A stretch of 63,799 nt of DNA, the filler included, from Chrysochromulina tobinii (taxonomy: Eukaryota), in assembly GCA_001275005.1 (NCBI GenBank). It is 4 parts of 4 records of this genome, joined end to end, with 100 filler letters (N's around TTAATTAATTAA, not from the genome) between each part and the next. Parts side by side here need not be neighbours in the genome. Positions count along the whole stretch, not along the records: positions 1 to 27,352 come from JWZX01000447.1; positions 27,453 to 42,723 come from JWZX01000450.1; positions 42,824 to 56,507 come from JWZX01000452.1; 1 more part is not named here. One strand, 5' to 3'. Positions 4,395-53,065 of the stretch are shown piece after piece. The notes under the pieces were generated by a model. The model was not told the DNA's origin and did no database searches. It worked only from the letters and a program-made list of their open reading frames with translations. How positions within the stretch are numbered: the stretch's first letter is position 1; every line of letters starts with the position of its first letter. The position numbers and the translations under genes were made by a program.

Positions 4395-7379
4395 ATGCCG
4401 CTCGACGATCTGCCGCCTTACCTGCCCACCACAGGCGACGCGCTCGACGCACTTGACGCCGAAGAGACGATCACGTGCGCGGTGGAGCAGCTCGAACCGC
4501 TGAGCGGCTCCGATGACGCAAGCTTCTGGGATGCCACAGCGGGTGGCGCTCCCGCGCTGCAAGTTTTTCTCGATGGGTACTTGCGATTCGCTGAACGCCG
4601 CTTTGCACTGACTGGTGACGAGTCTGACACCACCGAGGACTCTGCGAGCCTTCGGCGGCTTGTTCTTCGCATCCTGCTCCGTCTCGCAAAGCCACCGGCT
4701 TCCCACATGGCATGGGCTGAGCGGTTCTTCACGGTGCCGCGTCTCATCGACGCATGCGCACTATACGCATTCACTGACAAGCCGGGGTGCGAGCGGCTGG
4801 CTGCTGTCACGATGGGTCCGCAACCGGCCGCCAAGGCAGCCGGGCTGCATGCTTCTCTTGGTGACGCGGCCACAGCCATCTGCCGAGTGTGCGGATTCGA
4901 CTGCGTGCCGGAGGGCGCGGCGGGTGCGGTGCGCACCGCGCTGCTGCCCTCCGCGCTGGACGTTCAGACGGCCGAGGACGCTGCGATAGTAGGCGATTGG
5001 CTCCTCGACGCGACGGGCACTATGCATGCTCTCAGCCTAGTGCTGCCGCCCGCGGCCCTGCACGCCGCCACCAGTGGCCTCTCCAAAAGCTCCACAGCTA
5101 GTGACAGCTCAGTCGGCGCTGGTCGCATGGGTGCCACGTCGCTCGTGCCGCTATGTGGCGTGGGCGGCGTCGTGACGGCCTTGCAGCTCACCGTTGAGGT
5201 TGCCCTGCCGTGGCTGCGTCGCGCCGCCACGCCGGCCATAGGCGTCGTGGCGGGCTCGGCCGTTTCCACCCTTCACGATCGTCTGGTCGCTTGTGGATTG
5301 CACTGTCTCCACGCGGCCGCCAATCTGATCCTTGCGAGCTGTTTCGAGCCCGTTGGCGCCGCCACAGGCGCCGCCTCGGGCGCCGCCTCGGACGCCGTCG
5401 CTGACGTCGCGCTGGAGGGTGGTCGAGGTCATGGCGCTAGAGGGGGCGAGGGTAGCGGGCGCGGCGGTAAGGGTGGCGGCGGCAAGGGCAAGGGCGATGC
5501 CAAAGGCAAGGGCGCCAAGGGCGGCAGCGGCGGCCGCGGCAGCAGCGGCGGCCGCGGCAGCAGCGGCCAGGCCCTCGTGGACCTGGAGGCACTGTCGAGT
5601 GTGCTGCTTCAGCTCTCGGATCCTTGTGAAGCCCTCGAGGAGCTCGAGCCTCTCTACGTGACGGCACAGGTACCCCCTCTGATGACCCTCTGATGACCCT
5701 CTGATGACCCTCTGATGACCCTCTGACGACCCTCTGATGACCCTCTGATGACCCTTTGATGGCCCTCTGAGGACCCTCTGATGGCTCCTCTAACGGGCCT
5801 CTGTTGGCCCCTCTGATGGCCCATGGATCGCCCTTTGGTGATCCTCTGATTGCCCTCTGAGTGCATCTCAATCGAGGCACAGGTGGGCACGGCGCCAGCG
5901 ACCCGGCGCGCCGCGCCTACCTGCCTGGTGGAGGGTAGTGGCGCATTGCTTCAGCAGCTGCTCAAGTTGACTGAGGTAGGCGTTTGCGTGGAGGAGGCGC
6001 TAAGGGGCATGCCAACGGCCACGGCCGACTATCACCGATCGATGGTGGCGAGGGTCGATGAGTCTGCCTGCCGCTCCAAGGGAAAGGGCGGCGGCAAGGG
6101 CGGCGGCAAGGGTGGCGGCGCCTTCGTCGACGTGATCACGGCGGAGGAGAGGGAAGGCGTCGTTATGATCAGCGAGATGCTCCCTGGCTGTGGCGAGGGC
6201 TTCCTCGTCGCAGTGTTTCGTCACTACGGCGGACGGACCGAGACCGCGCTCAATGCGCTCCTCGATGGCTCGTTGCCGCCGTTTCTCGACGCGATGCCAC
6301 GTGATCTCGCCAAGCCGCCGCCGCCGTTGGGCGCCGAGGAGGATGAGGAGCCCACGACGGCGCCATCAGGTCGCTTACCAGTAGCAGGCGGTGTGTCGCT
6401 GATGGGCGTGGCAGCACGGCGCAACGAGACGTTAGCGCAGCGCCGGGCGCGGCAGCAAGAGGCAAAGGTACTCTCTGACCTGAACGCACCAGGACGGCGC
6501 GCGCCTCGGAGCGTGCTCGAGGCCGCGGCAATGGATCCCGCAATGGCGGCCGCACTCGCGGCGGAGGCCGCGGCGACCGACGCCTACAGTAACCGAACCT
6601 TTGGAGGCGCCGAGTTTGGCGCCGGTGGCGGGCCGGGGGGAGCCTCTTATGAGGCGTTACTGCCACGTCGTGAGTCCGCAGCGCTCGCGACGGCGCTCCA
6701 AAATAGGCAGGCGGCGCTCGAGACGGCGCTCTACGAAGATGAGCTCGATGACTCACTCGAGGCGTATAGTGCCGAGGGGCGCACCGCCGGGCCTGCGCTA
6801 CAAGAAGATCAAGAGGAGGCCAGCCAGGCTGTTCGCCGTGGAGGACAAGGAGGCTCGAGCGCCGCCGCGGTGCTCTTCGCCCACGACCCAGCGGAGGACG
6901 CAGGAGGGCGCTCCGGCGAGGCGCCCGGGACGACGCCGTATGGCCGCCAGGCGAGAAGCGCGGCCGGGCCTGGCGCAGCTAGCGGCGGCGACGGCGGCGG
7001 CGCGGCGCCGCTGCCCGGCACGGCGCTCGAGTGGGTGCGCGCCATCGGGCTGGGACAGTACGTGGACGCATTTCGTGCGGCGGGCATCATTCGTCTCGAG
7101 CTCGCCGCCAGATTGAGTGTGGCAGACGTGGCACGCCTCAAGATCAAGACTGAGGCGCACAAGACGAAGCTGATCCAGTCGGCTGCACGGCTGGCGGAGC
7201 GCCTAACACAGCGCGGCCGGCTGCCACCCCCAGGCAGCCGCGTCGCAACAGAGGAGGTCTACGCGGCGGCCGCGCAGCTCCACTACGACGCCGAGACGGG
7301 CGAATTCTGGGACGAGGGTGGCTCTATGGATGCGGCCGTTGGAGACAGCGAGGCAGCACAGGGCGGTGGCAGCGCGGCA

Positions 7380-7414
<35 letters not shown>

Positions 7415-7565
7415 AGGTGGCGGCAAGGGAGGCGGTCGCCCACCACTGCCGGTTGCCGTGCAACGCTCTCGCGCCGAGGCAAATAAGGCGAGACTGGGCA
7501 ACCATTCGAGAAAGCAGGGCGCTGCACGTAAGCAGGCCCGTGCGGGAGCTTTCTCGGGTATGTGA
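4395..7565 (+). CDS. ASCC2-like protein with CUE and SAM domains (exons 4395-5669, 5883-7565)
   Basis: N-terminus resembles ASCC2 (FLDGYLRF, RLIDACALY). CUE-like segment ISEMLPGCGEGFLVAVFRHYGG..ALNALLDGSLPPFL, YEDELDD, SAM-like WVRAIGLGQYVDAF, and C-terminal NKARLGNHSRKQGAARK. A phase-0 GT-AG intron joins the two ORFs in frame. Confidence 0.75.
5670..5882 (+). repeat. Intron filled with 11-bp CTCTGATGACC tandem repeats
   Basis: CAG|GTACCC...GCACAG|GTG; removal restores the reading frame. Confidence 0.85.
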
Positions 7566-8149
7566 CAGCCACTCGGCTCGTGAGGTGCGCCTGTGGTGAG
7601 GTACTTTTCGTTTTCCTACAGCAGTAAACCGCTTTTTCGTGTCCTTTTCAGACCGCCCGCGGCCCGGCCCCGCGCCGGGTGGCGGTGCCCCCGCCACTCT
7701 CGTCTTATATCCATACGATATACCTAACCTCGCCTCGTAGGCGGCATATACCTATACCTTGGCATATACTAACGCGGATTGCGGATATACCTATTGCACC
7801 TATGCCCTCGAACAGGATACCTCGGCGACGAGCACTTAACTCCTAACCCGTAAACCGAACAGGCAGCCTCACCCCCCCGCGCCCCCTTGATTGCTCTGTC
7901 CTCAGCGCGGCCGCCTCACGCCTCAGCCCCAGCCTTGCTCAATCGCAAATCCGATCTAAGTCCGCCCTACCTGCCGATCCCAGACGCCCGTGCAGACAAA
8001 GAACAAACACCACAACGCTCACCTAACAGCACCCTACATGACGCACTACACCCACCTCACAAGACGACGGCACCACCTGCAAATTCCCCCACGCACTCAA
8101 GGGCGCAGGGGGTCCCAGTTGGCTCACACAGGGTGCGTGCACTCTGTGC

Positions 8150-10525
8150 TCAAATCGCAAAGTACCAGGGCTCGATGAAAATGAGGACGCTACCGATGAA
8201 CGCGGCCAAGATCTGGTAGAGGATGTAACCCGCGTAAAAGACAAGGTAGAACCTGCCAGCCCACTTTGGGACCTTGCCATTGCAAACTATCAGCTGCAGA
8301 GTGAAGATGAACATGAAGATGAGCGACAGGAACAAACATCCCTTGGTCGAGCCGGGCGCTGCGTGGAAAGCGCTGCCAGTCCCTTCCCAGTATGGGCAGA
8401 GCGCCTGGAAGCCGTCCGGGGCGTAGCAGCCGTTGCAGTCCGCGTAGTTGTTCCCGTGAGAGCCGTGGCTACAGTTGCCTACATGCAGTGTGTGCATCAG
8501 CCAGATCAGGCCGAGGCCGATGCACAAGTTAAACGTGTTCGCCGCAATCGCCTGCACGCAAGCGTTGCTCCCTTGCCCATTGCGGGCTAAGTACACCGAC
8601 GCGATCAAATTCGGGAAGGACGTGCCAGCGGCACCGATTGAGAGCCCCAAGAGAGAGCCGGTCAGCCCCCAGCCGCAACCCAAGTAGTCGAGGACCGAAG
8701 TGAAGATGTAGGCGAAAATCGCCATCCACAACATTGAGAAGACCATCGAGACGAGCCAGTACTTCTGTTTGCCCGGCTGCCGCACGTCAGGCATGCACGG
8801 GTAGACGAGCATACGGACTGGTAGCGTGGCGAAGAAGCTCACCTTGGCCAGCCTGCCGCTCGGGATGCGATACCACGCTTCGTGATGCACCTCCTCCTCC
8901 ATCCCTAGGTGGAGCTTTACGCTGTTCCGCCGCGCCTTCGTCGAGCGGACTTGCACGTGGAGCTCGTCTATCTTGAGGACGATAAGGTCGAAGCAGAGCT
9001 GCATCGTCTCCTCAGGCTCGCCCGGAGGCAGCAGCAGCCGAATCTTCTGCTTCTGCCCGTCACGCTCCCATTCGACGAGCAACTCCTGCTGACGGACCAG
9101 CTTGATTTTGCTGAGCTGGCCGATCGGTAGCGTGAAGAACGGCGACTCCGGAGCAGCGTCGGTGTGCTTGTATCTCACTGGAGCTGATGGTTCGTCATCG
9201 ATCACGAACTGGCATCTCTGAAAGCGGGCCCCGAGGCCGACCAGCTGCACCCTGCTGTAGTATGGCCGATACCTGAGCAGCGTGCCGGTGAAGCCTTTCA
9301 GATGCTGTGGCCGCTCGAGCAGCCGCGCGCGGCAGTCTTGCAGCAACGTACGGAACTGCGGGTGGTTCGTGATCGAGAGCTCGGTCCGGACCGCCCCATT
9401 CGCCTCCTCGTCTGAGGGGAGAGGAGGTGCAGCTTCCACATCGCGTAATAGAGGCGGGCACTGCGCCGGCACGATCGACCCATTCGCCTCCTCATCTGAG
9501 GGGAGAGGAGGCGCAGCTTCTGCATCGCGTGCGCTAATAGCGCGAACGTCCTCGAACGGCATGTCCGCTGTGCTCTCCGTGAGCCCATCCACTTGGACTG
9601 TCCTCGTCGCCGTTTGACGGGAGTTAAAGCAGCGCTCCAGGCGGGCTTTGATCTTGGGGAAGAGGGCGAGAAACGGGACGTAGATGAGGAAGTAGTAGAG
9701 CACCATGATGAGGGCTTCCCACCAGTCGACCAACTCGTCCGCCATAAAGAAGTAGTACATTAGGATGGCCACCAAGAGTGCGGACAGCTCGCGCCCCATC
9801 GTCCAAGGGTCGACAACCAGCCCGCCGGCCACGACCGTAGCCGACGCCCCCACGATGCAATACAAGTTGAACGGGGTCGAGCCGACGACCGTGCCTATGC
9901 CGACCGTCGAGTCGGCGACGAAGACGCTGATGATCGAGGCGAAGAGCTCGGGCGCATTGCACCCCATCGCGAGCAGCGTCGCACTCGCAATGTCCTCCGG
10001 GATGTGGAGCCTCTCGCAGACGACGGTGATCGACGGGACGAAGAAGTCTTCGCAGACCAGCGCCATCGCGTAGAACATGTAGACGATCACGATGATCCAG
10101 ACAATGCTCAGCTCTAAGTCCCGATACTTGGTCAGCGTGGGTAGAATCTTGATCGCTTTGCATCCCTTGGGCGTGCTCGGATCTCCTTCGTCTTCATAGA
10201 GCTTCAAAGGAGGGGAGGAGGGGGGACACGACGCGCCCGCACACGGGGCGAGGTCTGGCGCCAAGCTGACGCTCTTGCAGATCTTCTCCAGATTGTACCC
10301 TTGATAGTTCCGATCGGCGCGAGCCTCGAAGAGTGTGCTCCGCAGCTGACCATCAGATCCGGTCGCCGTGAAGTTATAAACGCGGGGCACGTTCAGGAAG
10401 TTAGCGTTCATCTGCGCCCATGGCGCCGCCTTCATGGCGGGCGGCGCTTCGCAGAAGCGCGGCACGCACAGCCTGCCACCGCCATCGGCAGCACCGTAGC
10501 TGCAGTCGCCGGCCAGCATCGACAT
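8150..10525 (-). CDS. K+-dependent Na+/Ca2+ exchanger (NCKX/SLC24 family)
   Basis: Alpha-1 repeat LVCEDFFVPS..ATLLAMGCNAPELF..GIGTVVGS..FN and alpha-2 repeat GLSIGAAGTSFPNLIAS..ANTFNLCIGLG; two transmembrane clusters. Confidence 0.9.
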   Translation of the reverse strand: MSMLAGDCSYGAADGGGRLCVPRFCEAPPAMKAAPWAQMNANFLNVPRVYNFTATGSDGQLRSTLFEARADRNYQGYNLEKICKSVSLAPDLAPCAGASCPPSSPPLKLYEDEGDPSTPKGCKAIKILPTLTKYRDLELSIVWIIVIVYMFYAMALVCEDFFVPSITVVCERLHIPEDIASATLLAMGCNAPELFASIISVFVADSTVGIGTVVGSTPFNLYCIVGASATVVAGGLVVDPWTMGRELSALLVAILMYYFFMADELVDWWEALIMVLYYFLIYVPFLALFPKIKARLERCFNSRQTATRTVQVDGLTESTADMPFEDVRAISARDAEAAPPLPSDEEANGSIVPAQCPPLLRDVEAAPPLPSDEEANGAVRTELSITNHPQFRTLLQDCRARLLERPQHLKGFTGTLLRYRPYYSRVQLVGLGARFQRCQFVIDDEPSAPVRYKHTDAAPESPFFTLPIGQLSKIKLVRQQELLVEWERDGQKQKIRLLLPPGEPEETMQLCFDLIVLKIDELHVQVRSTKARRNSVKLHLGMEEEVHHEAWYRIPSGRLAKVSFFATLPVRMLVYPCMPDVRQPGKQKYWLVSMVFSMLWMAIFAYIFTSVLDYLGCGWGLTGSLLGLSIGAAGTSFPNLIASVYLARNGQGSNACVQAIAANTFNLCIGLGLIWLMHTLHVGNCSHGSHGNNYADCNGCYAPDGFQALCPYWEGTGSAFHAAPGSTKGCLFLSLIFMFIFTLQLIVCNGKVPKWAGRFYLVFYAGYILYQILAAFIGSVLIFIEPWYFAI

Positions 10526-10825
10526 CGAGGTCAAACCTCCGTGTCACGAGGACTTTCGCTCGTTTTCCCAAATGGGAATCTTTGAGGAGAGATGGAACTC
10601 TAGTTTCTTCCGAATTTTCTCCATGGAGACAATGGTTCGTCAAGAGAAACCGGGAGGGCGCTCTTTCTTGACCGACCCACACCTTCGACCGCCGCACCAC
10701 GCGATGAAAAATTCTCTCTCAACCACAAATGAAAATTCACTCCGCCCAACTGCGGTTGGTCGAGCCCACCGATCTTCCAACGCAGAAGTCAGAGTGTACG
10801 GGGATGGTGCGACAGTCGGTGAGGC

Positions 10826-11524
10826 TCAGTAGAAGGACGACCCGCGGTTGGAGAAGGCATGGGCTAGAATCTCTGCCCGATCGGTCAAGATCTTCTGGGA
10901 CCCCTCATCGAGAACATGGTCGAGGATGTCGACGAGGTTCGCGGTAGACGCCTTCTGAACCGTATGGGTGCTGCTGTTGCTGGTTCGGGCCACCGTCAAG
11001 GCATCCTCAATCGACCTCGTGTGCTGATGGTTATATGGGTTATATGGTAGAGACGTGCTTGAGTTTGTCGATTGCACGTGCCTGATTTCTGCGTTGACCT
11101 CGTGCACGAAGCACCACCAGATGGCAAGGCACGTTGCAACCAACAACACCCAGAGCGTAATGCACTTGTACAGATAACTGCTCTCCTTTTTATCCAAGTA
11201 ATCAATGTCTTGTTTGATCTGGTGCACACATCGAGGGGAAAGAAGACCGTGGCGTACTTCAATCAGTTGTGAGAAAGAAGGAATAAGCAGCGGTCCTGAC
11301 ACAGGGTTCCATGAACGTACGTGCAAGTTCGGGGCACGCGAGGGTGAACGGCGCGTACGCACCAGTGGTCTCTTCACTGCAGATCCTGCCTCCATGGTTT
11401 GTGTGTAGACTTTTGACCCGCGCAGCAGGCGCCCCTCTGGCCAGTTCTGCCTCGCGTGAGACTCGAAGAGTCCAGTGTTTTCAGGAGCCGGAAATGGGTT
11501 CGTTTGTTTCAACGGAGGTTGCAT
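10826..11524 (-). CDS. Hypothetical single-pass membrane protein (start uncertain, possibly about 11395)
   Basis: Open frame with one hydrophobic segment (CITLWVLLVATCLAIWWCFV); no recognisable domain. Confidence 0.35.
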   Translation of the reverse strand: MQPPLKQTNPFPAPENTGLFESHARQNWPEGRLLRGSKVYTQTMEAGSAVKRPLVRTRRSPSRAPNLHVRSWNPVSGPLLIPSFSQLIEVRHGLLSPRCVHQIKQDIDYLDKKESSYLYKCITLWVLLVATCLAIWWCFVHEVNAEIRHVQSTNSSTSLPYNPYNHQHTRSIEDALTVARTSNSSTHTVQKASTANLVDILDHVLDEGSQKILTDRAEILAHAFSNRGSSFY

Positions 11525-11683
11525 GCAAAACGAGTTGCGTAGAGAAAGTGTGGATTGAGGGATTTACATCGTTGTGGGCCGCGCAGCGCAGAGCGCCAAA
11601 TGTATCGTCTTTGCGAGCATGAACGCCGCCGGCCGCCGATTTGGCGTGGCCACAGTCGTGCTGCCTGCTGGCACGGCGGTGTC

Positions 11684-11848
11684 TTGACCCAAGGGGGAGT
11701 GGTCTACTACAGACTGTATTTTTCATGTTTATAAGGCCCCAACCCTACACCTGTTTGGAAATTGAATGGTTGACCCAAGGGGGAGTGGTCTACTATTTTT
11801 CATGTTTATAAGGCCCCAACCCTACACCTCGGTTTGGGAATTGAATGG
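11684..11848. repeat. Two-copy ~80 bp tandem duplication
   Basis: TTGACCCAAGGGGGAGTGGTCTACTA...TTTTTCATGTTTATAAGGCCCCAACCCTACACCT...AATTGAATGG occurs twice with small indels. Confidence 0.9.
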
Positions 11849-12076
11849 GTGGGGTGCGCGTGTGGGCGCGTCCGGTGAGGCCCCTCTTTCCGGGATCTGA
11901 ACATCTGATCTCAACAACGATGTTTGCTGTTCGGCAGTTCGCGAGTTCGGCTGAGAACATCGCTAACTTGCTCTCGTCTTTAAAGTAGGTGCATTATCGA
12001 TGTGTATTCGCGATTTGACCCGGGTCCACTTCCCGCGTACAAATCGTGAGTTGAGCAGAATTAAGTTGTGTCCCTG

Positions 12077-18090: not shown

Positions 18091-19393
18091 TCACACAAAG
18101 GGCGTCGTCGCCGGCCATGACGGCGGCGACGACGCGCGCCCCGGTCGCATCCCTTGCTGCGCAGGCCGGAAGGCATAGCGGCCGGTGCGGAGCTGTTCAA
18201 CGCGGGGCGAGAGACGAGCAGCGCAGAATATGAGCGTCGAAGAGCGGGGTGTGCACGAGATGCGCAAGCGCCATGGGTGATCGGGCCTCCGAGCATTTAC
18301 CTGAGCGAGCGTCACCTTGAGTTTGGTGGAATCGGAATCACGCAAGGTCACTTCGACAGCATTCATCGCGTGCACCACCCAAGTGTTGTCGACCCGTTGC
18401 CCCTGCTGCAGGACGATCACCGGCATGCCGCGCTCGAGAGCGAGGCCGTTACAATGGAGCATCTGGCGCTGTTTGTCGAAATACGCGTCAGTGGCGTTGG
18501 CGCTGTTGGCGGCCTCGGTGGCGCCTGACGCCGCATTCCGCACGCTGTAATGGTCGACATTGGTGTTGAGCTCCTCAAGATCGGCCTTGATTTCCTCTGG
18601 CTTCAGCCGAGCGAACGAGGTTGGCAGGCAGCCGGTCGGCTCAAGCGCCTGCTTGCGCCCCTTGCCGTCAGTAGGGGTCGAGCTGCCTGCGGACGGGCCG
18701 TCGCCGCCCAAGGTTTTCACCTTTTTACGCTTCTCTTCGATGCTGTCGATGAGCCGACTCTTGAAGAATTCTAGCTGGGCCTGTGCAGCGAGAATCACCA
18801 CGCGCCGTTTGGATGGGTCGTTTGGGTGGGCTCAGGCTCTGCCTGGCTACTACTGCCAACCCTCTGGCTGGCTGCGCTGCTGTAGGCGGTTACGTGGACG
18901 CTCAGAGTGGCAAAGAGCAGCCATGGCGCGCCGAGAGGCGCGTTGGCGGACAGCGCACCCTCGTCTCATCCTCGGCCTGCTTCTTCTCGCACTCGTACAG
19001 CGCATCGACGTTTGCAATCTCCCTCTTGCGTATGAAGTTCAGATACGCCATCTTCTCCTTCTTCTTCTGTTCGTGCGGCTCCAGGGCCTCGATGAGAGCC
19101 GGGTGCGTGCCTGCGGGATGCGGCATCGCTGGCCGTCAGCCGTAGAGCGATGCAGGCGTGGCGGAAGCGCCTGCCATGTGAGGCAGACAAGGCAGGCAAG
19201 ACGAACCGTACAAGATTGAATCGAGCTCTGCCTTCCACGGAGCCGTGGCAGCGGCGGCGTCGTCCATGGCTTCGTCCTCAGCGTCCAGAGCATCCGCAGC
19301 AGCAGCAGCGTCAGGCGCAACGGCGGTTGGGACTGCGCCGCGTCGCGAGCCGGCGCGCCCTGCTGCCGCGCTCCCTCCTCGGGCAGCCGACAT
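18091..19393 (-). CDS. Sds3/SUDS3-like Sin3-HDAC complex subunit (multi-exon; introns 18193-18300, 18781-18958 and at least one more)
   Basis: Sds3-like coiled coil (KREIANVDALYECEKKQAEDE) and a C-terminus like SUDS3 (NAVEVTLRDSDSTKLKVTLAQ|LRTGRY). Two GT-AG introns preserve frame; the 5' exon structure is uncertain. Confidence 0.7.
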
Positions 19394-19580: not shown

Positions 19581-22500
19581 ATGGAAAAGCTGTCCAATGG
19601 TTCCCAGCTGGCAGCGCAGCTGCTGGCCGCGCAGCTCGGATCGCTCCTCGGGCCGAACACCTGCGGGCCCGAGGATTTCGAGCGGGTCAAAGCACTCGGG
19701 CAGGGTTCGCACGGCACAACAAGGCTCGTCCGGCGCAAGCACGACGGGCGGCTCGTGTGCAGCAAGCACGTCCCCACGGAGCGCTTCCCCAAGGTGGCCA
19801 GCCAGGTGGTGCGCGAGGTGGAGATTCTCATGATGTGCGACGGTCATCCGCACATCATCGGCTTCATCGGCGCCTTTGTGACCGCCGATGGACTCGACAT
19901 CGTGCAGGAGTTTGCCGAGGGCGGCACGCTACAGCAGCGAATCGACCGACGGCGCGAGCTGCAGGATCCGCTGCTCGAGAGCGAGGTGCTGGATACCTTC
20001 ATCCAGCTGACGGGCGCACTCGAGCATCTGCACTCCCACAAGGTGCTCCATCGTGACCTGAAGCCAGCGAACGTCTTCTTCGACCGTCGCAACCTCGCGC
20101 GCCTAGGCGACTTTGGCATTGCGGCGATCGCAAAGTGAGCGCCCGCGCCCATCCTGGCCACAGCGGCCGTCGTGTTCCACGCCGCACCTCCCGCACCGCA
20201 TCGCGCCGCCGCCGCGTGCCCTCGGCGACGCGCGCGCACTCTCACGTTGGCCCACTGCCACTGATGACCACTGATGACTAATGATGACCACTGATGACCA
20301 CTGATGACCACTGATGACCTCTCTCCCGTTGGCCCACCCTTCCCGGGCTGCGCTCATCGGCTGACGACCGCTGATGACCACTGATGGCCACTGATGACCG
20401 CTGAGGGCCCATTGCCTCATTTGGGTGCGCCACGATCCGCAGCGACAGCCGGCACGCGGAGCCCTCCGTTCTGGGAACACCCCTCTATCTCGCTCCCGAG
20501 CTCATCTCGGGCCAGCCGAGCGGCACTGCCACGGACCTCTGGGCCTTGGGAGTCGTTCTCTACGAGATGGTCGCGCTGCGTCACCCGTTCGCGGCGGAGA
20601 ACCTCGCCGCTCTCGCGATCAAGATCTGTGCGGCGAACTACGACCCCCTCTCGAGCTGCGTGGGCCTGAAGCAGGCCGCGAGTGCTAATGGGGGGGGCAG
20701 TCCAGCTGCGAGCTACTACTCCGCCGAGCTGCTCGCCCTGCCCAGCCGGTGCGCACGATGATGGCCTCTGATGGCCTCTGATGGCCTCTGATGGCCTCTG
20801 ATAGCCTCTGATGGCCTCTGATGGCCTCTGACCCCCCTCCCCCGCCCGCCCGCCCGCACGGACCCCCGGGCCCCCCCGTACCCCTATCTCACTCCCGCTT
20901 CGCCCCGCCCCCCCCCCTCGCCTGACACGTGGCCACGCAGGCTTCTCCAAGTACACCCGGAGCTCAGACCGCCCGCCACGGCGCTCCTCGCCGATCCGCT
21001 GCTCAGGGCACATCGGTGCTTCTTCGCGGAGTCGGCCGAACGTTGCCACGAGAGCGCTCGGAATCTGTGCGAGCTGAGCAACGGGAGATCGGCGGGAGGT
21101 CAGCCCGAGCTCCAATCTCCGACCTCCAGTGCTCCCGCCGATTCCCTGGCGAGTGTCGCCGCCGCTCCCGCCCACACAACGAAGGGGCGGCGCGCGGGCG
21201 GGCACTCGGACGCAGTCTTGGGCGGGCACTTGGACGCCGACGGTGGCGGCGCGAGCGGCTCGGCGGCCGCGGACAATGGCGAGCTACACCGATGGGAAGC
21301 TTCTCTGGCGCTTCGGCTGGCCGAGTACCAGATGGCGTGCATGCATGCGACGCTCCTAGAGGAGGCGGCGGAGGCGCGCTACTCCCGCGATGCACTGCTC
21401 GCTCGGGTCGAGGCAGACTTCGAGGCGGAGCGCCGTGTGGAGCGCCGGCTGCTGCGCGACGAGATGGAGGCGATGGAGCGCTTCGCGTACGAGAGCATGC
21501 GTGAGGTGCTCCTCCGCCATGGGCAGCTCGACGCTCGCGAGGCATCCCTCGTGGCGCGCTCGAGCGCCATCTTGGGCGCGGTCGGCGCGCCGACGGACGC
21601 CGAACGCGCCGTCGCCGCCGCTGCTGCTGGAGGGTTGCTGTACGTGCCGCGACGAGGACGAGAGACGACAGGAGAGCCAGGGACAGCGGTCGATGCGGAG
21701 GTGTCGGTGCCATGGGCGAGCATCTCATCGAGCATCTCAATCCTTGCGCAGCCTGCACGGCACACGCCCTCGCGTCTGACTCCCTCGCCTTCGGAGTCTC
21801 TCCCTTCCAAAGATGGATCCGTCGGTCTCCCTTCCAAAGATGGATCCGTCGACCGGGAGAATGGCGTCGCGTCGCCCAGTCCCGCCCTGCGTGCCGCTTC
21901 GACCGCTCTGCACGACGCCACGGCCGCCGCCGCCACGCATGCCGCCACACATAACGCCCTGCCTGCCGCCGGGACCAGCGTGCCCCCCATCGTGGGTGGC
22001 ATTCCGGGCTGGGCGGAGGCGATCCGCGAGCTCGCAGGGCGAGATTCGACGGAGCCGCGCGCGCACTCGTGCGAGGTGGGCGCGGACGAGGAGCCGCGGG
22101 CCTCGAGCGACCGAGGAGGTTCGAGTAAGCTCGAGGAGCTCAAGCCGCTGGAGCTGCTGCGGTCTCTGCGAGAGGCGGAGGAGATGCTGCATGCTCGCGA
22201 GCTCCAGGTGCATGCGCTCAAGCAGATGAAGAAGCGCGAGGAGCAGATTAAGCTTATCTCGCGGCACGTGCGCTCCATTGCGACGCGTGCCTTCGAGGGA
22301 TGGCGTCGCGCGCTGCTCCACTCGAGGGCTGAACGCGCTCTCGCCTCCAAGGATGAGCAGATCGCGCAGCTCAGCGCGAGGTTGCGTCGGATGGCCGCCG
22401 CCATCACCGACGGAGAGGATAGGAACACTGCCCTCGCGGCCGCCGCCGAGGTGCTCTCGCTCATCATGCACGACGGTACGATGGGATCGCCGGTGGAGCT

Positions 22501-23920
22501 GGCGGAGGTGGGCGGCGTCGCCGACGAGCGCAGCCGCAAGGTGGGCAGCGCCACTAAGGCCAGCAGCTCTTCGTATCAGCATGCCTCGTCCAAGCCGCCA
22601 CTACGGCGCAACTCAAGTGGCCACGTGGCGAGCCCACTCGGCGAGGGACTGACCCTTTTTGAACGGGGAGGCCATGGCGGCCACTTTGGAGCCGGTGGCT
22701 CTCGCGAAGGCGGCCCTGGTTCCACGTGCTTCGGTGAGAATGGGCGTGAGGCAGCGCGGGAGGCGAACGGGCCCGCCGCGGCCGAGCAGCGCTCACGCAG
22801 CCTGGGCAAGCAGCGATCGCGCGAGTTGCAGCTTCAGGCGGATAGCGAGCAGGGGGCGCGCTCGCCCGGCGGCCTGTACGAGCGGGGGCTCAAGCAACGC
22901 CAGAAGCGTGAGGCCGCCATTTCGCGCCGGAGGCGCGAGCGAGAGGCGGCCGAGATTGCGAACTGCACCTTCAAACCTTTGACTCAGACGGCCAGCGATG
23001 CGCCGGGGCGTGAAGGCACTCGTGAACGGCTCAGGGGCGACACCAGCTCGCCACTGCCTGGGGGCGAGGGCGGCAAGGGCCCTCGGGGCGGCGGCAACAA
23101 CATGCGTGTGGAGAAGGGATTGGAGATCGAGCCTCCGGCACATGGCGTGACCGGTAGAAGAAACGGGCTGAACTCCCCCCTTGCACACACGCACATCGAG
23201 GCCGCAGAGCATAGCATGCACGGCTCTTCCAGCGGCATCTGGGGTGCGCAGCTCGACGACTCTCATCGAACGCTGATGACCACTGATGACCACTGATGAC
23301 CACTGATGACCACTGATGACCACTGATTGCTTCCCTCATCAGGTGGGCAGCTCGACGGCGATGGCGCCGATGGCCTTTCATCGGCCGAGCAGCATCAGTA
23401 CCCTTCGCAGCCGCTGCCACCGAGCCCGAGTGCACTCGTCGAGAGTAACCGCATGCCTCTTCACACGATGGACTCGACGCGTGGCACGGCGCAATCACTG
23501 ATTATGTCCACCATCATGTCCGCCCTCCCCAAGGCTCTCGATTCGTATCGAGAGCGGCGGCGCACCACGAGCACGTCTGGCGCGGCGGCCGGCGTGCCGG
23601 CGGCCGCACCCCCACTTGCTCACTCCGCGTACGCGGCGGCGCTGCGCCCGAGCACGCCCTACCACCGTCCCGACTCACGCGCCGACTCACCAGCCCTCGG
23701 TTCACCCGCACACTATTCGACTGACATCGCGGAGGCCGCCGCGCGCGGCTCGCCCTTCAGCTCTCCTCCCTATTCGTCCACTCTCGGATCGACAGTCTAC
23801 TCGACAGCCTCTGCCGCGGGCGACCTGCCGCGCGCGCGCGAAAAGGTGGACGCGCACGTGCTGCCGCTCGGGGCCGCCGCGTACTCCTCCGACGTCGTCT
23901 CTGAGGATGAGCTGATGTGA
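19581..23920 (+). CDS. NIMA-related (NEK) Ser/Thr kinase with long coiled-coil/low-complexity tail (exons 19581-20134, 20443-20748, 20941-23243, 23343-23920)
   Basis: GQGSHG, HPHII, EFAEGGTL, HRDLKPANVF, LGDFGIA and GTPLYLAPE across spliced exons; three GT-AG introns keep the frame. Confidence 0.85.
20135..20442 (+). repeat. Intron containing 10-bp CTGATGACCA tandem repeats
   Basis: AA|GTGAGC...CCGCAG|C gives IAN-DSRHAEPSVLGTPLY. Confidence 0.85.
20749..20940 (+). repeat. Intron containing 10-bp CTGATGGCCT tandem repeats
   Basis: CG|GTGCGC...ACGCAG|G gives RLLQVHPELRP. Confidence 0.85.
23244..23342 (+). repeat. Intron containing 10-bp CTGATGACCA tandem repeats
   Basis: G|GTGCGC...CTCATCAG|GT; joins ORFs 21218 and 23327 in frame. 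Confidence 0.8.
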
Positions 23921-41867: not shown

Positions 41868-42595
41868 TGTGAGACGATTAGTTCCTCGACTTTTATTTGT
41901 GAGACGATGGAACTCATGGTTTCGGTTGTGAGACGATTTAGTTGCGTTTGAGAGACGATAGTTGTTCGGTTGCGTTTGTGAGACGTTTTCATTTTTACTG
42001 TTGCAAGTCCAACCGCGTCGTCTCACAACCATCAGTTCGTCGAACTCCATCGTCTCACAAATGCAACAACATCGTCTCACAAACGCAACTAAATCGTCTC
42101 ACAAACGCCAGTTCGTTGAACCGCGTCGTCTCACAACATCGTCTCACAACCGGCAGTTCGTCGAACTCCATCGTCTCACAATAATGCAACTAAATCGTCT
42201 CACAAACGCAACTGAATCGTCTCACATACGCAACTCAATCGTCTCACAACATCGTCTCACAACCGGCAGTTCGTCGAACCCCATCGTCTCACAAATGCAA
42301 CTAAATCGTCTCACAAACGCAACTGAATCGTCTCACATACGCAACTAAATCGTCTCACAACATCGTCTCACAACCGGCACTTCGTCGTCTCACAAATGCA
42401 AGTTCATCGTCTCACAAATGCAACTAAATCGTCTCACAAACGCCAGTTCATCGTCTCACAAACGCTAGTTCGTCGAACTGCATCGTCTCACAGACGCTTG
42501 TTCATCCGAACGCCAGTTCATCGTCTCACAAACGCTAGTTCGTCGAACTGCATCGTCTCACAGACGCTTGTTCATCCGAACTGCATCGTCTCACA
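41868..42595. repeat. Bipolar array of 29 CGTCTCACA boxes (5 reverse, 24 forward)
   Basis: Counted by eye in the sequence; recurring unit lengths of 13, 22 and 32 bp with a ~112 bp higher-order repeat. Confidence 0.92.
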
Positions 42596-42723
42596 GACGC
42601 TAGTTCTTCGTCCGTGCGCGCATTCTGGACGCCGAGGGCGCCAATTCGGCCTTCCAGCGGCCTTCCAGCGGCGCCCATTTGGTCTCCAGCGGCTCCCATC
42701 CAGCTGTCCAGGGGCCGTGGTCA

Positions 42724-42823: not shown

Positions 42824-45713
42824 GGGGGCGGGGGCGGGGGCGGGGGCCCTTCCATAGCTAAACGTGCGCCGATGGCTGACAGCGGGCGCGGCGGCGGACG
42901 TAACGGCCGCATCGGTCGATGCGGCTTTAGTAGGCGGCGCCGGCGCCGGCGCCGGCTTCGGTGGGGGCTTGCCGGCGGCTCCGAGAGCGGCACGGGCGGC
43001 ACTCATCGGGCTGGCGCCCGCCGGAGGTTGTTTCGCCCCCCCCGTTAGTACTGTGGGCGTGGCGGCGGTGTGGGCGGCATCGGCGGCGGTCATCAGCGAG
43101 ACGAGCGCGTCAGTGGAGACCGGCTTGGGCGGCGTGGAGGCCGCAAGCGCGGGTATTCCAAATTTGGCAGTCGCCTCAGCCAGGGCGCGAGAGCTCGCTT
43201 CGTCAAGCGCCTCGAGCAGCGTCTTCTCGACGAGGTGCAGCGCTCTCCGGTGGTCCGCGACGTGATCGGTGAGATTGAGGTCGAACTCGCGATACTTGAT
43301 GATCATCTGCTCCTCCTGACTCGCCTCTGACTTTTCTGTGAGCCACCACTGTCGGAAGGCCCGCGAGGCGTAGATGAGGGAAAGGAAGGGAGCGCAAGGC
43401 TGCTTGGGGGCTTGTCCGATGCCCGGCCGGTGCGCATGCGCCGCCGCGCCGCCAATTTTGGCGCAGACGCCCTCGAGAGCAGCACCCAGACCTTCCTTGA
43501 GCTTCTCCTTGAGCAACGGTGCGTGTGGGGCGACCACCTTATCCCGCTCGCACCGCTTTCGCACATCTTCTTCGAAGTCGAGGAGGAGGGCCCAGGTCGC
43601 CCGTGCGGCGGCATCCGCCGGGTGGACCGAGTCCGACAGGGAGCCCTCCTTAAGGTTGAGGATGCCAGCCAAAAACTCGAGGCAAGCTGCCTGCACGGCC
43701 GCCTCATCGAAGCGTTCCTAAGGACACAGAGGACCGAACTCATCAGTATGGGGCGCTCCGAGAGGCACTCCGAGAGTCCCCTCAGAGAGTCCCTCAGCGA
43801 GTCCCTCAGAGTGGCACTCAGGGAGGCACTCCGAGAGGCTCTCAATGGCACGCCCACCTTGGTGCATAGAGGGCCGAGCTTCCTGATCAGCGCGCCGACT
43901 GGAGGACAGCTCGACGCGAGCTGGCTGACCGAGGTGGGGAAAAAGGGCGACGAGGGCGCCAGACAAGGGCGCAGCTCGGTGCGGTCAAAGTCCGCGATGA
44001 CGATTTCGGTGGAGAGAGCGGCGCCGTCGGCGGCGATGGTCTGCGTCGTGCCCACATGCGTGCCGATCAGATAGGGCGAGGTTGAGTCCGAGATGAGCGT
44101 CTGGGCGTCCGAGGAGGCGAGCAGCGTCGCCGGCAGGTAGGGGATGTACGTGGACGAGAAGATTAGGGGAGCGAGGAGCGCCCGCAGCGCGTTCGACGCG
44201 GGCAAGAGCGTGTCCGGCTCCGACGAGATCAGCAGCACCTGCGAGGCACCATCCGAGGGACTGATGAGGGGCGCCATCCGAGGGGCTGATGAGGGGCGCC
44301 ATCCGAGGGGCTGATGAGGGGCGCCATCCGAGGGGCTGATGAGGGGCGCCATCCGAGGGACCAGATTTGACCAGATTTGGACTCAGCCCGATTCAGAGGT
44401 CTCTCAGCCCGATATGGAATGGGGGCGACCAGAGGAGGGATAGAGGGGGGGGGGGTAGCTCAGGGCAGATGGTGGAAGCCGCGCGGGCGGGATGGCGACC
44501 TTTTGATCCGTGAGGCAGGCGGCGATGAGGTACGCAATCTCGGTCACATTGTAGTCCATCGCCTTGAACAATGGCTCGATGGGCGAGGGGAGCCAAAAGG
44601 GGTTCTCGACGAGCCACTTGAGGTCCTGCTCGCGTTGACGAAGCAGGCCGAAGGTCGTGCGGCAGGCGTGCAGCAGGGCGTCGTGGTGGACGGCGGCCTC
44701 GTCGACGACCTCGTACGTGCGCGTCATCAGGATGAAGTGCTGACTACTGCTCGGGGCCTTGTACACCTTCCCAGCGTCCTTGGCTGCTTGCTCCTTAGCT
44801 GCCTGCTGCCGCTGCAGCGCGTCGGAGAACTTCAGGCCATTGAGAGGCTCGCCGTCAAGCGCGGTAATCTGGTCACCCGGGCGCACCTGACGCTCGGAGG
44901 TCGTTACGGAGGTCATTAGGGAGGTCATTAGGGAGGTCATTCGGGAGGTCATTAGGGAGGTCATTGGGGAGGTCATTAGGGAGGTCATTAGGGAGGTCAT
45001 CAGGGAGGTCATTAGGGAGGTCATTAGGGAGGTCATTAGGGAGGTCATTAGGAAGGTCGTTAGGGAAGACGTTAGGAAGGTCTAACGTTAAGGCAGGACG
45101 TTTGGGGGCGCACCTGGCGCTCCTTCGCGGCCATGCTGCCCGCCTCGACGGACATCACAACGTTGTTCTGCCCCATCACCAGCCCGAGACCATACTGGTT
45201 GCGGCTCACGCGAACCTTCAGCTCTCGCGTCCGCTTGGTGGTGGGCACCTTCGCGTGCTGGACGAGCGGCAGCAGAGACCGAAGCAGCTGCGAGAGCACC
45301 TTGAAGATGGGCCGGCCCGAGATCATGCAGATGGCCACCGGGCGGTGCTTCGGGCCCGAGCCCTTGGTGCTCGACGGGTGTGGCACCAGCACCTGCAGCG
45401 AGACACCGTGCAGCTCGTTGCCTTTCGAGTCGGTTAATGTGAAGGTGAGCTCAGACGGCTCGTGGAGCTTGAGAACGGGCGCGAAGCAAAAGTGCGCGAT
45501 CGAGTCGGGCAGCGAAGCCTCTTTCGGGAAGACAAACACCGGATCGACAGAGAGTGGCAACTGCTGCGGCATGGCGATAACGCTCGCCTGCGACTGTCCC
45601 GGTGGCGGGGCTGCGAACTGGACGATTGGACCATGGAGCAGCCCAAAGGTGAGCGAAAGGAAACCATCCTCGACCTTGTCTGGGTCTACGATTTCCGACG
45701 CTGTTTGCGACAT
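42824..45713 (-). CDS. DENN-domain protein (Rab GEF-like) with inserted PDZ domain; exons 45713-45114, 44886-44500, 44238-43858, 43717-contig end (3' truncated)
   Basis: uDENN IAHFCF..TFTLTDSKGNELHG; PDZ YGLGL..GSMA..VRPGDQITALDG; DENN LTDQK|VLLISS..YIPYLP..PYLIG; three phase-0 GT-AG introns. Confidence 0.85.
43718..43857 (-). repeat. Intron with degenerate ~12-bp CTGAGTGCC/CTGAGGGAC repeats
   Basis: AAG|GTGGGC...CCTTAG|GAA gives LCTK|ERFDE. Confidence 0.75.
44239..44499 (-). repeat. Intron with 25-bp CCCCTCGGATGGCGCCCCTCATCAG repeats
   Basis: AAG|GTCGCC...TCGCAG|GTG gives LTDQK|VLLISS. Confidence 0.75.
44887..45113 (-). repeat. Intron with 12-bp CCTAATGACCTC repeats
   Basis: CAG|GTGCGC...CGTCAG|GTG; removal restores the PDZ domain frame. 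Confidence 0.85.
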
Positions 45714-46447: not shown

Positions 46448-46800
46448 ACATATTGGTGAGTCCGGCGCGCCGCACCGCGTGAGTGGGTGGGTCCAACGGT
46501 TTGATCTCAAGTAAATGTTTATAGTAAGTGCTTGATGTATACCGGTTGTAGCCATGCAGTCTCTACATCACGGGAGCGCCACTCCCGCGAGCTGCGCGCG
46601 GGGTGCGGACGCGACGTCGCCCACACCTCGACGCTCACCGAGTTACGACCGACGGGAGACCGACGGAGACAGATGTATCATCTGGTCGCATGCTTGGCGA
46701 ATGCCCGCTCGCATACGCCCATCGTTATCGCATCTGCGACTGCCTGCCTAATGGAACTGCGAGGATCGTCGCATAGGGTGTACGAGAGAGGGTCAGAAAC

Positions 46801-47187
46801 TCAGAATCGTGGGCATTTCAGTACAGGCGTGCGTTGGCAAGGACTCACGTTGAATTCATCGCTGTCCGGATTGTTGCGCATATAGACCGTCGATGTCGGC
46901 AGGTAGTGCGTCTGGATGCCCTTGTACCCCATCGTCGCAGCGCCCCCGTGCGGAGCCGTCGATGCCCGCGGCCATCGCTTGCTTGAGGAGCCCTCAAACC
47001 CGGTCGTGAAGGACGTCAAGCGCTTGGGCCCCAACAGGTGGCCATTGTCGTCCACGATGAAGACGGTGCGGAAACCGGGCGGGCGCGCCACTGGTTTAAT
47101 TTCGCGGTTAGCGGACACCTCCCAGTTGCAGAGGGACACAGGCTTGAAGGCCGAATTGTACTGCAACGCCGACGAGCTAAACGACAT
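46801..47187 (-). CDS. CFAP126: Flattop/CFAP126 ciliary protein
   Basis: FSSSALQYNSAFKP..LCNWE..FIVDDNGHLL matches the Flattop signature. Confidence 0.8.
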   Translation of the reverse strand: MSFSSSALQYNSAFKPVSLCNWEVSANREIKPVARPPGFRTVFIVDDNGHLLGPKRLTSFTTGFEGSSSKRWPRASTAPHGGAATMGYKGIQTHYLPTSTVYMRNNPDSDEFNVSPCQRTPVLKCPRF

Positions 47188-49876: not shown

Positions 49877-51379
49877 GTAGCGATTTGCAGGCGGCGCTTT
49901 GAGGCTTTGTGGCGGCGCGCCTATTTTCAACTCACCACTCTCGGTATGCGTCTAGAGGCGACGAGCACCAGTACAAATGAAGTACGAGATCTGGCAAAAC
50001 GTGGACGTGTAGCTGCCGTGCGTCGACGGTGCAAAAGGAGTTTGGAATCTCAGTTTGATTTCCAAAAAAAGTAGATTGAACTGCACGGCAAGAAAATCCC
50101 CGCAGCGAACTTGTGAATCTTCGGGGATTTTCGAGAAAGCTATTTTGTCTCCCGCTGCTCACCACGCTGATCGATCGCCCTGCGCAAAAAGGGTGAGGAT
50201 TCTGTGCCCTCCATTTCGGAAAGAGCTCCGCTTGCAGCCGCTGGGTGCTGGGACTTTTAGCCGGCGAGGACGGAGCCTCAGCCGCCTCTTCCTCTTATCC
50301 ACAAGTGTCACCTGGATCTCCGATGACCCCCAGCACGATGTCCCCTCAGTCTCCGTCGTCGGCAGTGCCAATGCCAGTACCCCTGCACTCTCTGTCCTCC
50401 TCCCCGCCCGACGACGGCGCGGCGCTCAATGCCTATCTTCAGAACGGGCGCCGAGACATCGAGGAATTGCATTCGAGCAGCATCACGAGCGTGCCGGAGG
50501 ACTCTGCGTGGTCAGATACGAAGTCGGACGCCTTCCAAATGTCTTACACCGGGTCAGACAAGTCTGACGGCGACGTCTTCCGTCTGTCCTTCAACCCGGA
50601 ACGCTACAGCCCGCCACCCAACCCATCGCACTCGCAGAACGCCCCGTCGCACTCGCAGGCTGGACAGATAGAGCCCGCGCCATCTACGAATAAAGCACGT
50701 CCGCCGAGGCCACCGAATTCGCTGGCAAGGCCGACCATGATGGCCGAGAGTCCACGCAGTAGAAGCTTCATGGGTGGGCTACTGGGCTCGTCGCGCTGGT
50801 AGCTCTGCCTCTCTCTAGGGTATGTACGAGTACGGTACCATGTATTGCGCATATGATAGCCGGCCGGGCGCCGGTATCGCGGGATGCCTGGGTAATTCCT
50901 CGGGTCGTGTTTCGGTCGCGCAGCGGTGACCGCGACCGCGGTGAAAACTGTAGCACAACTTGCAAGGATGTGAGCCGCACGAAAATCATCACATCTCGTC
51001 AAATCTCGTCAAATAATGTGGCGCGCTCCTCAGCCCGCAAGTCGTCAGTCGTGGCGAACGAAAGGGGCACGAGCACAGAGGCGTCACAGCCTCTCACAAC
51101 TTCTATATGCCAATATGCGGTAAGCACCAAGTCCCGCGCACCTTAAGTGCAGAAGCCCACGCCAACGCCATGTCGTTTTCTTCACACAATCTGATTTCTC
51201 GACAACTCTTCGTTCTTCACGAGAGTCGATCAACTGCGCCCTCCACGTTCGGGACCTGTGGTTGTGCGTCTTGCCGAGTTGGCAATTTCACGTGAACGTG
51301 GACGTGAACTCTTCGTTCTTCTCGAGTGTCGCGGAAAGCTCTGAATTTTCTGCATGAATTTTCGTCGACCTTCCGCATC

Positions 51380-52111
51380 ATGAACGACCAGACGTATACG
51401 CGATCGACGATCTGGGAGGCTGACTTGGACCACCGCTTCTGCCCGTACGCCACGTCGCGCGCCTTCAACGCGGCTGAAGGTGCCACCGTTGTTGAAAAGT
51501 TTGGCCAGTCATTTGTCTGGGACGAGTCGCTGCACTGGACCGCTGAAGAGCTCGAGCCGCTTAGGCTCGTGGGCGATGAGCCCATGGATAGAGTCCTCGA
51601 CTCACTAGACCCTGCCGCAGGCACGGACGTATTCAGCGAACTCGTCGATGCAGCCAAGAAGCAGCCCAACGGCGAGGCGGCTCTGTTGCTGCAAGACGCC
51701 AGCCAAGGGGCGGCGGAGTGGGTCGACTGGGACCTGATCGCGAAGGGCCAGGCCGTCTTCGTGCGGCACATGCCAGCGGCCGGGGTCGTGCTGTATAACA
51801 TGTCCCTCGTCGGCGGTTTCTCGGCGCCCAAGATCACCGCCGTGCTCGAGCAGAGCGGATATTTGACCGCCGCGCCGCACGCGGTGATGCGCCGACTGTT
51901 TGAGACTGGCAGGCTGCTCGTGGACAGTTGTGCGACCAAGGATGCGCTGCGCCCCTTCGAGGCCGGCTGGGTGTCGGCGCTGCGCGTGCGCATCCTGCAT
52001 GCCAAGGTGCGACGGCGCCTCTTGCGCCGGCAGAAGCAGAGCGGTCTGTCCTCCTCGTCGTCCTCCTCCGCCTCTCAAAGATCAAAACGCGACTCCGCCG
52101 CCCCTGCCACT

Positions 52112-52144
<33 letters not shown>

Positions 52145-53065
52145 GCCGCCGCCTCATCATTGGAGGGCGCAGAGAGCACATGGGACGTGGCGGCGCTAGG
52201 CGTACCCATCAACCAGGAAGACATGGCCGTCACTCTCCTCGCCTTTTCGTATAACGTCCTTTATGGCCTCGAGTTGATCCTTGGTGAGCCTCTCACCGAA
52301 CCGGACCAGCTGGCGTACCTGCACCTGTGGCGCTATCTCGGGCACCTTCTCGGCCTGCGGGGCGAGTGGAACCCGTGCACGCCGCCACCCGGCGTCGCTC
52401 CCATCGCGTACGCCAAGGCTTTCTTTGAGAGCATCATCGTGCATCAGCTGCATCCAAACGAGCTGTCGATACGAGTGGCACACCACATGCTGCGGGCACC
52501 CGCCGCTGCACGGCGCGCCCGTCGCGCGGCCGCGCCGTGCGCTATGCCCGTCAGCGGCGGCGATGCCAAGGGCGCTGGTACGGTGCTGCTCTGCGATGAT
52601 CACGCCTTGCATAAGGCACCGAGCCTGAGGACCGACCTCGCCGAAGCGATCGCTTTCACGCACAACGCGCAGCTCACGCGCCTCCTTGTGGGCGACGCGC
52701 TCGGTGACGCGCTGCAGCTCCCGTTCGACCCTGCCGCGCGGCGCGCCGCGCGCCGCCGGCTTCGCTTCTTACGCCTGTACGCATGGGCATCCGAGAGCTG
52801 GTTGATTGGCGGCGCCATCGAGCGGCTCCATCGGTGTGTGCTCCGAACCGTTCACCAGAACTGCCTCTGATGAGCTCACCTACTAATGACCTACTGATGA
52901 CCTACTGATGACCTACTAATGACCTACTGATGACCTCTCTCACCAGAATTGCCTCTGATGACCTCTCTGAGTGCCTCCGTCATCAGGTTTGCGCTTCGAG
53001 CCATCCAATGGGCAGAGGGGCCGCAGCTGTTCGTGATGAAGCCGGGAGGCCGCTGCCCAGTCTAA
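51380..53065 (+). CDS. MpaB / rubber-oxygenase-like (DUF2236) heme oxygenase domain protein (exons 51380-52833, 52987-53065)
   Basis: RRLFET, RVRILHAKVR, GVPINQEDM..TLLAFS and HLWRYLGHLLG. Confidence 0.85.
52834..52986 (+). repeat. Intron with 11-bp CTGATGACCTA repeats
   Basis: CG|GTGTGT...CATCAG|G gives RLHRFALRAIQW...*. Confidence 0.75.

Follow-up and report, generated by a model that had tools for sequence, protein, structure and literature searches.

Introns built of short tandem repeats in Chrysochromulina tobinii carry copies of neighbouring exons and may seed new introns by template switching

Eight introns in a stretch of DNA from Chrysochromulina tobinii, a cultured freshwater haptophyte alga, are built of short tandem repeats, and they raise the question of how one family of repeat-bearing introns comes to sit in unrelated genes. 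The window, by which we mean the whole stretch of 63,799 nucleotides analysed, consists of four contigs joined by spacers, and the eight array introns lie on contigs 1 and 3. A DENN exon matches a named C. tobinii protein with 100% identity across 80% of the query, and C. tobinii and C. parva are both members of the NDPK protein cluster. The question is a general one; the accessible text of PMC4202315 describes the source of most newly gained introns as unknown, and that of PMC3443670 documents few intron-to-intron transpositions. Our data lead us to put at roughly 70% the probability that new introns of this family are made by microhomology-guided template switching from existing array introns. 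This one cultured alga shows donor and recipient introns, the microhomology at junctions and a haplotype free of the intron, and if introns do seed introns, the old question of intron origin becomes testable.

All eight segments run from GT to AG, and their removal joins open frames in four genes, which encode a CUE/SAM protein, a kinase, a DENN protein and an mpaB-like protein; the frame of the kinase gene across its introns was read by eye. The array periods, in order of position, are 11, 10, 10, 10, 12, 25, 12 and 11 bp. These results bear out the preliminary description of the locus, which had placed eight GT-AG introns with units of 10, 11, 12 or 25 bp in four unrelated genes on two contigs, and its reading of the segments as introns agrees with the exact splicing of four of the eight seen in joins of RNA contigs. 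The three DENN introns, of 140, 261 and 227 nt, are skipped exactly in each of three RNA runs and not in the one DNA run, so that with their GT/GC..AG ends they behave as U2 spliceosomal introns, and the 99 nt at 23244 are skipped in one RNA run. At 20135 and 20749 RNA contigs stop at the splice site, with no join among the matches listed; for the introns at 5670 and 52834 no bridging was seen among the RNA matches listed, where cover is low and the evidence points neither way. The stops in all three frames that had been noted earlier occur in six of the eight introns, while each of the introns with 12-bp units keeps one open frame.

The main feature of these introns, which the preliminary description had overlooked, is the duplication of exon sequence at their boundaries. 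Significant boundary copies are present in five of the eight array introns of the window and in neither of two array-free introns (p<0.02; individual p values were computed against random AG|G sites), and they fall into three classes. In class I, a copy of the start of the next exon supplies the GT or GC donor and is followed by the array and then by a stereotyped tail that contains a branch-like A at -17 and ends in AG. The intron at 23244..23342 has this form, its head (23244-23258) matching the next-exon start (23343-23357) at 14 of 15 positions before the array begins, and the cut seen in RNA falls at the start of the copy; in 52834..52986 the first 21 nt are an aged copy of 52987-53007 (15/21). 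Class II is the mirror image, with a GT head, then the array, then a copy of the end of the previous exon that gives the AG; in 43718..43857 the 3' end (43718-43740) is an aged copy that still matches the end of the upstream exon (43858-43880) at 16/23 positions. In class III the duplicated stretch spans AG|GT, as in 44887..45113, where a 17-nt repeat lies over both splice junctions (45106-45122 and 44879-44895; 16/17) and 11 letters fit on either side.

To extend these observations beyond the window we used loci from a metagenome scan for the array and tail pattern, which gave at least 129 loci; removal of 27 overlapping ones left 102 non-redundant loci with 497 kb, less than 1% of the genome. 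The pattern made 162 matches, from which 8 near contig ends, 14 before another array and 34 duplicates were subtracted to leave 106 selected introns. A boundary copy with a score of at least 10, a cut-off that leaves copies under about 10 nt below detection, is present in 61 of these 106, compared with 0.4% of permutations and 3/106 shifted controls. Among arrays not chosen by the pattern, splice-anchored copies occur in 35/131 against 2.8% by permutation; at a score of at least 13 these comprise 15 of class I, 10 of class II and 3 of class III, although one class II and two class III cases among the unselected arrays are repeated tails and not exon copies. Class I copies, in which the sequence before the array repeats the start of the next exon, are anchored at the AG. 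The next exon starts with GT or GC in 103 of the 106 selected introns, the G being forced by the selection pattern, and in 36 of the 38 tail-bearing introns without a visible copy.

Table 1. Array introns of the window and the array-free introns compared with them (positions along the whole stretch).
Feature	Position	Strand	Observation
Array intron, 11-bp units, CUE/SAM-domain gene	5670..5882	+	9-nt direct repeat over both junctions (5663-5671, 5876-5884); p=0.012
Array intron, 10-bp units, inside kinase domain	20135..20442	+	Boundary likeness weak (13/23) and not significant; RNA contig stops at 20134, runs on
Array intron, 10-bp units, kinase gene	20749..20940	+	No boundary copy; RNA contig ends at 20940, runs on
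Class I array intron, 10-bp units, stereotyped acceptor tail	23244..23342	+	RNA join skips 99 nt; p=0.009
Class II array intron, 12-bp units, DENN gene	43718..43857	-	Spliced in 3/3 RNA runs; p=0.003
DENN intron, 25-bp unit (degenerate core and repeated acceptor-like tail)	44239..44499	-	Spliced in 3/3 RNA runs; no boundary copy
Class III array intron, 12-bp units, DENN gene	44887..45113	-	Spliced in 3/3 RNA runs; p=0.0002
Class I array intron, 11-bp units, mpaB-like gene	52834..52986	+	No RNA bridging among matches listed, low cover; p=0.017
Comparison intron, NDPK gene, no array	59465..59563	-	One core copy at branch-point distance (A at -31)
Comparison intron, putative SUDS3 gene, no array or boundary copy	46757..46848	-	Branch-like motif at -37; spliced in 3/3 RNA runs
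Comparison intron, no array, no boundary copy	18193..18300	-	RNA join in one run

The copies are 10-47 nt long with a median of 20 (n=61), and they differ from their exons at 24 of 689 sites, a divergence of 3.5%. The mismatches fall at the three codon positions in the proportion 5/6/13; we reject the idea that the copies evolve as coding sequence, and this distribution fits drift in the intron together with silent change in the exon. Where copy and array join directly, microhomology of at least 3 nt is found in 18/34 joins, as opposed to 5.5% in simulation. Coding sequence directly precedes the class I copy in 43/55 cases, and a cut at the start of the copy keeps Pfam positions colinear in the MBTPS1 and NYN domains, and approximately so in a DAO domain. 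An assembly artefact can be rejected, since independent DNA contigs span the intron junctions without differences and the same introns recur in assemblies of 96-99% identity. As a separate observation, class I copy lengths cluster at 18-21 and again at 28-33 nt (n=61), which hints at helical-turn spacing.

The repeat unit itself resembles a branch point. The commonest tandem-repeat period is 10 bp (305 of 1114 arrays), yet the units vary widely, with dozens of variants of 10-13 bp. A branch-like A lies at -17 in 85/106 selected introns, as judged by position only, and CTRAY is enriched on the coding strand, which supports the likeness to a branch point drawn in the preliminary description; we infer from the motif that the array unit may be an amplified branch-point motif. 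The last unit is unlike the inner ones, one variant accounting for 53 of 97 last units and 9 of 376 inner units, and the commonest 20-nt tail is present in 20/106 introns. Two of the three array-free introns of the window carry a single branch-like motif, at -31 and -37. The SUDS3 and NDPK introns had been said to lack the motif, and while neither has an array, that of NDPK, whose spliced C-terminus is identical to that of the named C. tobinii protein P0130, contains one core. The claim that the core reads on the mRNA strand stands as an overall sense bias across the sampled loci and fails for 44239..44499, which has no array core on the mRNA strand and only looser matches, three sense and five antisense; its unit repeats an acceptor-like tail, which puts the core mainly on the antisense strand.

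A structured RNA or ribozyme was considered and rejected, as there is no Rfam match at the gathering score in the window and the fold z-scores of the six introns folded, from -0.15 to -2.1, are unremarkable. A resemblance between the core and hammerhead or box C/D motifs is unsupported. The last seven bases of class I tails (for example 23336-23342) give the repeat core when read in reverse complement, and in 4/6 minimum-energy folds the 3' end pairs with an inner unit over 6-8 bp, although the overall stability is not significant.

In the sampled loci the arrays lie where introns would be expected. There are 281 arrays in the 497 kb, compared with none in Markov-shuffled copies. Coding strand was called with a model self-trained with the arrays left out, which gives the right strand for 119 of 126 pieces of the window, each 180 nt long. 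The flanks of 166 unselected arrays are sense-only in 97, antisense-only in 6 (two of these a coding protein repeat) and mixed in 1, with no call in 62; random positions gave 116 sense and 143 antisense of 400. By segment, 116 of 135 unselected arrays lie between coding segments of the same strand, and all 116 are in the sense orientation; the others are at segment edges (13) or inside segments (6, four being a protein repeat). Convergent and divergent gaps, which make up 38.5 kb of the sampled loci, hold no arrays. In a motif-blind test of 109 called arrays, CTRAY was found on the coding strand only in 68, on the antisense strand only in 2 and on neither in 39, with a further 68 arrays uncalled. 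The sense-only, intron-only placement proposed earlier is therefore upheld in the sampled loci, as the arrays are neither equally frequent on both strands nor present in these gaps.

Array-bearing bins of the window reach summed DNA depths of up to 1,205 and 32,974, compared with about 40-50 elsewhere, which indicates that the repeat is carried by many other loci; arrays recur in hundreds of them. Array introns cluster strongly by locus (chi-square 200, df 41), with 15, 13, 12 and 10 extra arrays in L125, L085, L069 and L075, respectively, whereas 14 of 43 long loci have no extra array. Contigs from RNA libraries are also rich in array sequence of other loci (20134-20799 and other array bins; summed depth 550-840), a signal in which pre-mRNA, excised introns and DNA carry-over are not distinguished. 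A viral or prokaryotic origin was rejected, the 26 viral and 22 genome-contig matches being chance, coding sequence or bacterial intergenic repeats, with the exception of L013 and L022, which look like algal contaminants in bacterial bins. Look-alike arrays of 9-10 bp stand in mixed orientation between genes of Bacteroidota and other bacteria (L003-L024; L001-L002) and are probably convergent.

Sequence shared between introns of different genes gives insight into where the inserts come from. Three intron pairs in unrelated exon contexts share sequence outside the repeat. The window intron 23244..23342 is near-identical end to end to an intron of an unrelated Hsp70 gene (L091 5972-6050), with 27/30 nt alike before the array and the same tail; the L091 head is a copy of the exon of L091 itself, and part of the linker is the own exon copy of L089. 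Within an intron of L069 lies a 75-nt unit, matched with 3 mismatches, whose first 22 nt are those of an exon start of L125, a gene unrelated to that of L069 by translation; the two are putative beta-galactosidase and exostosin-like genes, respectively. Finally, two introns of L068 that lie 356 nt apart are alike in head and array and share 7 nt of identity on the exon side, which is more in keeping with an unspliced template than with an excised intron. From these shared stretches, other introns appear to be the templates, and three transfers in less than 1% of the genome are, by a rough estimate, about what random donors would give. General propagation within a gene was considered and is not supported, as arrays within one locus do not resemble each other more closely than arrays in general (p 0.95 and 0.14), which leaves L068 as one local case.

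One class I intron, in L074, can be followed between relatives. In a 99-member cluster, of which 40 members were read, 15 proteins are listed; the intron is present in 11 of these, 2 read through and 2 are uninformative. The two that read through come from different sources, end in the read-through of the next intron and share two residue changes; they represent a closely related haplotype from which the intron is absent. The nearest other lineages (78% and 77% identity) also read through without an intron. In addition, the number of array units differs between assemblies.

Taken together, the exon-copy brackets and the scraps of unrelated genes make it likely that introns already present are copied into other genes and so give rise to new ones. 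We propose that microhomology guides the copying of part of an existing array intron into a cryptic splice site in a different gene. The polymerase would leave the target at a few matching bases, copy through one junction of the donor intron and rejoin the target 10-47 nt further back. Since the junctions of donors look like cryptic splice sites, one end would land ready for splicing and the message would be restored; as the unit is putatively an amplified branch-point motif, nearly any truncated copy would bring a branch point and stop codons with it. Slippage between the two exon copies would make head-to-tail units and could also remove the intron cleanly. That the arrays keep to genes and to the sense strand suggests a step coupled to transcription, and we see about even chances of an RNA template (pre-mRNA, through reverse transcription) and a DNA template at transcribed loci. 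Tentatively, and with less confidence than in template switching itself, we extend this to introns that spread without a transposase or any other enzyme of an element, the pre-mRNA of array introns templating reverse transcription or RNA-templated repair at transcribed genes, and daughters becoming donors in turn to give thousands of introns whose pedigrees are kept in nested exon scraps.

The earlier idea of an intron-generating repeat gains from the boundary copies, the placement of the arrays and the likeness of the unit to a branch point. That of addition from a dedicated template is not supported as stated, given units that vary widely, inserts that hold exon scraps of other genes and a search for reverse transcriptase that saw no such motif in the 497 kb, under 1% of the genome.

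Several observations weigh against template switching from existing introns. No copy above threshold is found in 45/106 selected introns, in 96/131 unselected arrays or, at significance, in three of the eight window introns. A linker replaces microhomology in 19/53 class I joins, another acceptor tail precedes the class I copy in 10/55, and 34/53 internal tail junctions are head-to-tail units that local slippage alone could explain. At L074, at least four other, distant lineages (P0144, the 8-member P0145 cluster, P0151 and P0174) break at the same codon with unrelated sequence, so that this position may be old or a hot spot, and precise loss, or incomplete splicing of transcripts from another haplotype, could account for the two intron-free proteins. 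The sampled loci were picked by their array pattern and yielded no enzyme for the process, and strand and gene calls come from the self-trained model and not from annotation.

The alternative that fares best, although we consider it unlikely, is a non-autonomous mobile element of Introner or SINE type, moved by a dedicated transposase or by an endonuclease-reverse transcriptase using target-primed reverse transcription, with the exon copy as target-site duplication and the array as body or tail. LINE-type insertions have variable duplications with one fixed end and one truncated end with microhomology, and class I resembles them in all three respects; a commonest tail shared by 20/106 introns also favours an element. 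Class II, in contrast, has the opposite polarity, so that two mirror classes have opposite fixed ends, and unit and tail variants are many. LINE and SINE insertions would be expected in both orientations and between genes, whereas none of 116 arrays is antisense and none is intergenic. An element would also leave the donor-recipient identity on the exon side in L068 unexplained; the search for reverse transcriptase is a weak test. Introners are present in other haptophytes, according to the accessible part of PMC9860276.

More doubtful is the renewal of old introns in place, by branch-point slippage and local tandem duplication of the acceptor with loss of the first unit, which would create no new positions. 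The common head-to-tail units, the copy number that differs between assemblies, the same-codon intron of L074 in four distant lineages and the single core at branch distance in an array-free intron would all follow from it. Local events, however, cannot put an exon fragment of another gene into an intron, and the coding sequence directly ahead of most class I copies, the absence of the L074 intron from the closest lineages and from a closely related haplotype, and the GT or GC exon starts in introns without a visible copy speak for new positions.

We regard as very improbable that the arrays are minisatellites which owe their form to transcription-coupled mutation or to selection for signals in splicing, chromatin or decay, with the copies as unrelated repair scars. 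Transcription-coupled remodelling of minisatellites to a 10-bp period is described for C. elegans in the available portion of 10.64898/2026.08.08.743475, and both the stops in all frames in most window introns and the look-alike arrays of bacterial contigs would suit such an origin; but the copies are fixed precisely to splice sites and adjoin the array, neither of the two array-free window introns tested carries one, and the transfers between loci are left unexplained. The slimmest chance falls to a telomerase-like enzyme that would synthesise the repeat de novo at staggered breaks on a single dedicated RNA template, for while target-array microhomology fits priming and the 10-bp period is dominant, there is no single invariant unit in length or sequence, the foreign exon fragments and the linkers held in common suggest that introns serve as templates, the polarity of class II is reversed and the window has no Rfam match.

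Compared with known systems, the feature works like an Introner and falls outside the Introner classes with fixed duplications. Introners, likewise, are related introns at non-homologous sites that carry one splice site and co-opt the other from a target duplication, and the excess of GT/GC exon starts here resembles the GH motif described in dinoflagellates. In the accessible parts of PMC9860276 and bioRxiv 10.1101/2020.10.14.339549, however, they take splice sites from duplications of 3-9 bp whose size is fixed within each class, and terminal inverted repeats and fixed ends are frequent. The C. tobinii copies are of variable length, and we found none of the fixed short duplications, fixed ends and terminal inverted repeats of DNA-transposon-type Introners; one end is ragged with microhomology, the body is a minisatellite and exon scraps are inherited. 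C. tobinii is in the table of screened genomes of PMC9860276 and not in its Introner tables as far as seen, and low-complexity families were filtered out according to the text available; screens of this kind would miss the present class. A term search of the accessible text of PMC12130899 returned no haptophyte terms.

Models of intron transposition by template switching and retrohoming are named in PMC3443670, the accessible text of which gives 14 identified events and no in vivo demonstration; they share with our data introns that template introns and a sense-only, gene-only placement. Plain reverse splicing leaves no target duplication, whereas long duplications and partial copies are common in C. 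tobinii. The Daphnia neointrons at staggered double-strand breaks described in the available part of PMC4202315 are similar in having a direct exon repeat at the far end of the new intron and presence/absence polymorphism; their repeats are of 4-12 bp with the source of most inserts unknown, as opposed to 10-47 nt with sources traced to other introns of one family. Intron gain by AGGT tandem duplication, as set out in the accessible text of PMC3443670, is like class III and the head-to-tail units and unlike classes I and II, in which foreign sequence provides one splice site and the branch point. The part of PMC11782384 available reports direct repeats of 4-30 bp close to introns generally, and that of PMC11146597 describes intron circles; such circles could explain head-to-tail units. 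A literature search, with subscription papers and bioRxiv supplements outside it, returned no description of this array-intron family, and the motif strings occurred in no paper.

The proposed mechanism could also explain oriented 10-11-bp intron repeats in haptophytes. Emiliania huxleyi, in the 2013 work of Read et al., reportedly has 10-11-bp tandem repeats enriched in introns, with biases of position and orientation, that were suggested to aid intron processing. To our knowledge these have not been linked to exon duplications or intron gain. The family may be large, as rates of 8 arrays per 64 kb in the window and 0.32 per kb in the flanks, the latter biased upward, suggest roughly 7,000 to 19,000 arrays when scaled to a genome of 59 Mb (accessible text of PMC4580454).

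The window contains several other features. A sodium/calcium exchanger gene at 8116-10522 has a second copy in L068 (8381-10697) that is 94-98% identical, and a TPR repeat gene at 15757-17131 (126 bp x 10.9) belongs to a multi-copy family. A protein with LRR and globin domains and then a 1467-codon open frame without a Pfam match occupy 34189-40232. Near the end of contig 2, a complex tandem array of 22, 44 and 111 bp at 42018-42610 is unrelated to the intron family. Three dispersed intergenic repeats, at about 11740-11830, 51250-51300 and 56201-56295, have many loose ends and summed DNA depths of 11,231, 567 and 579, respectively, compared with about 40-50.

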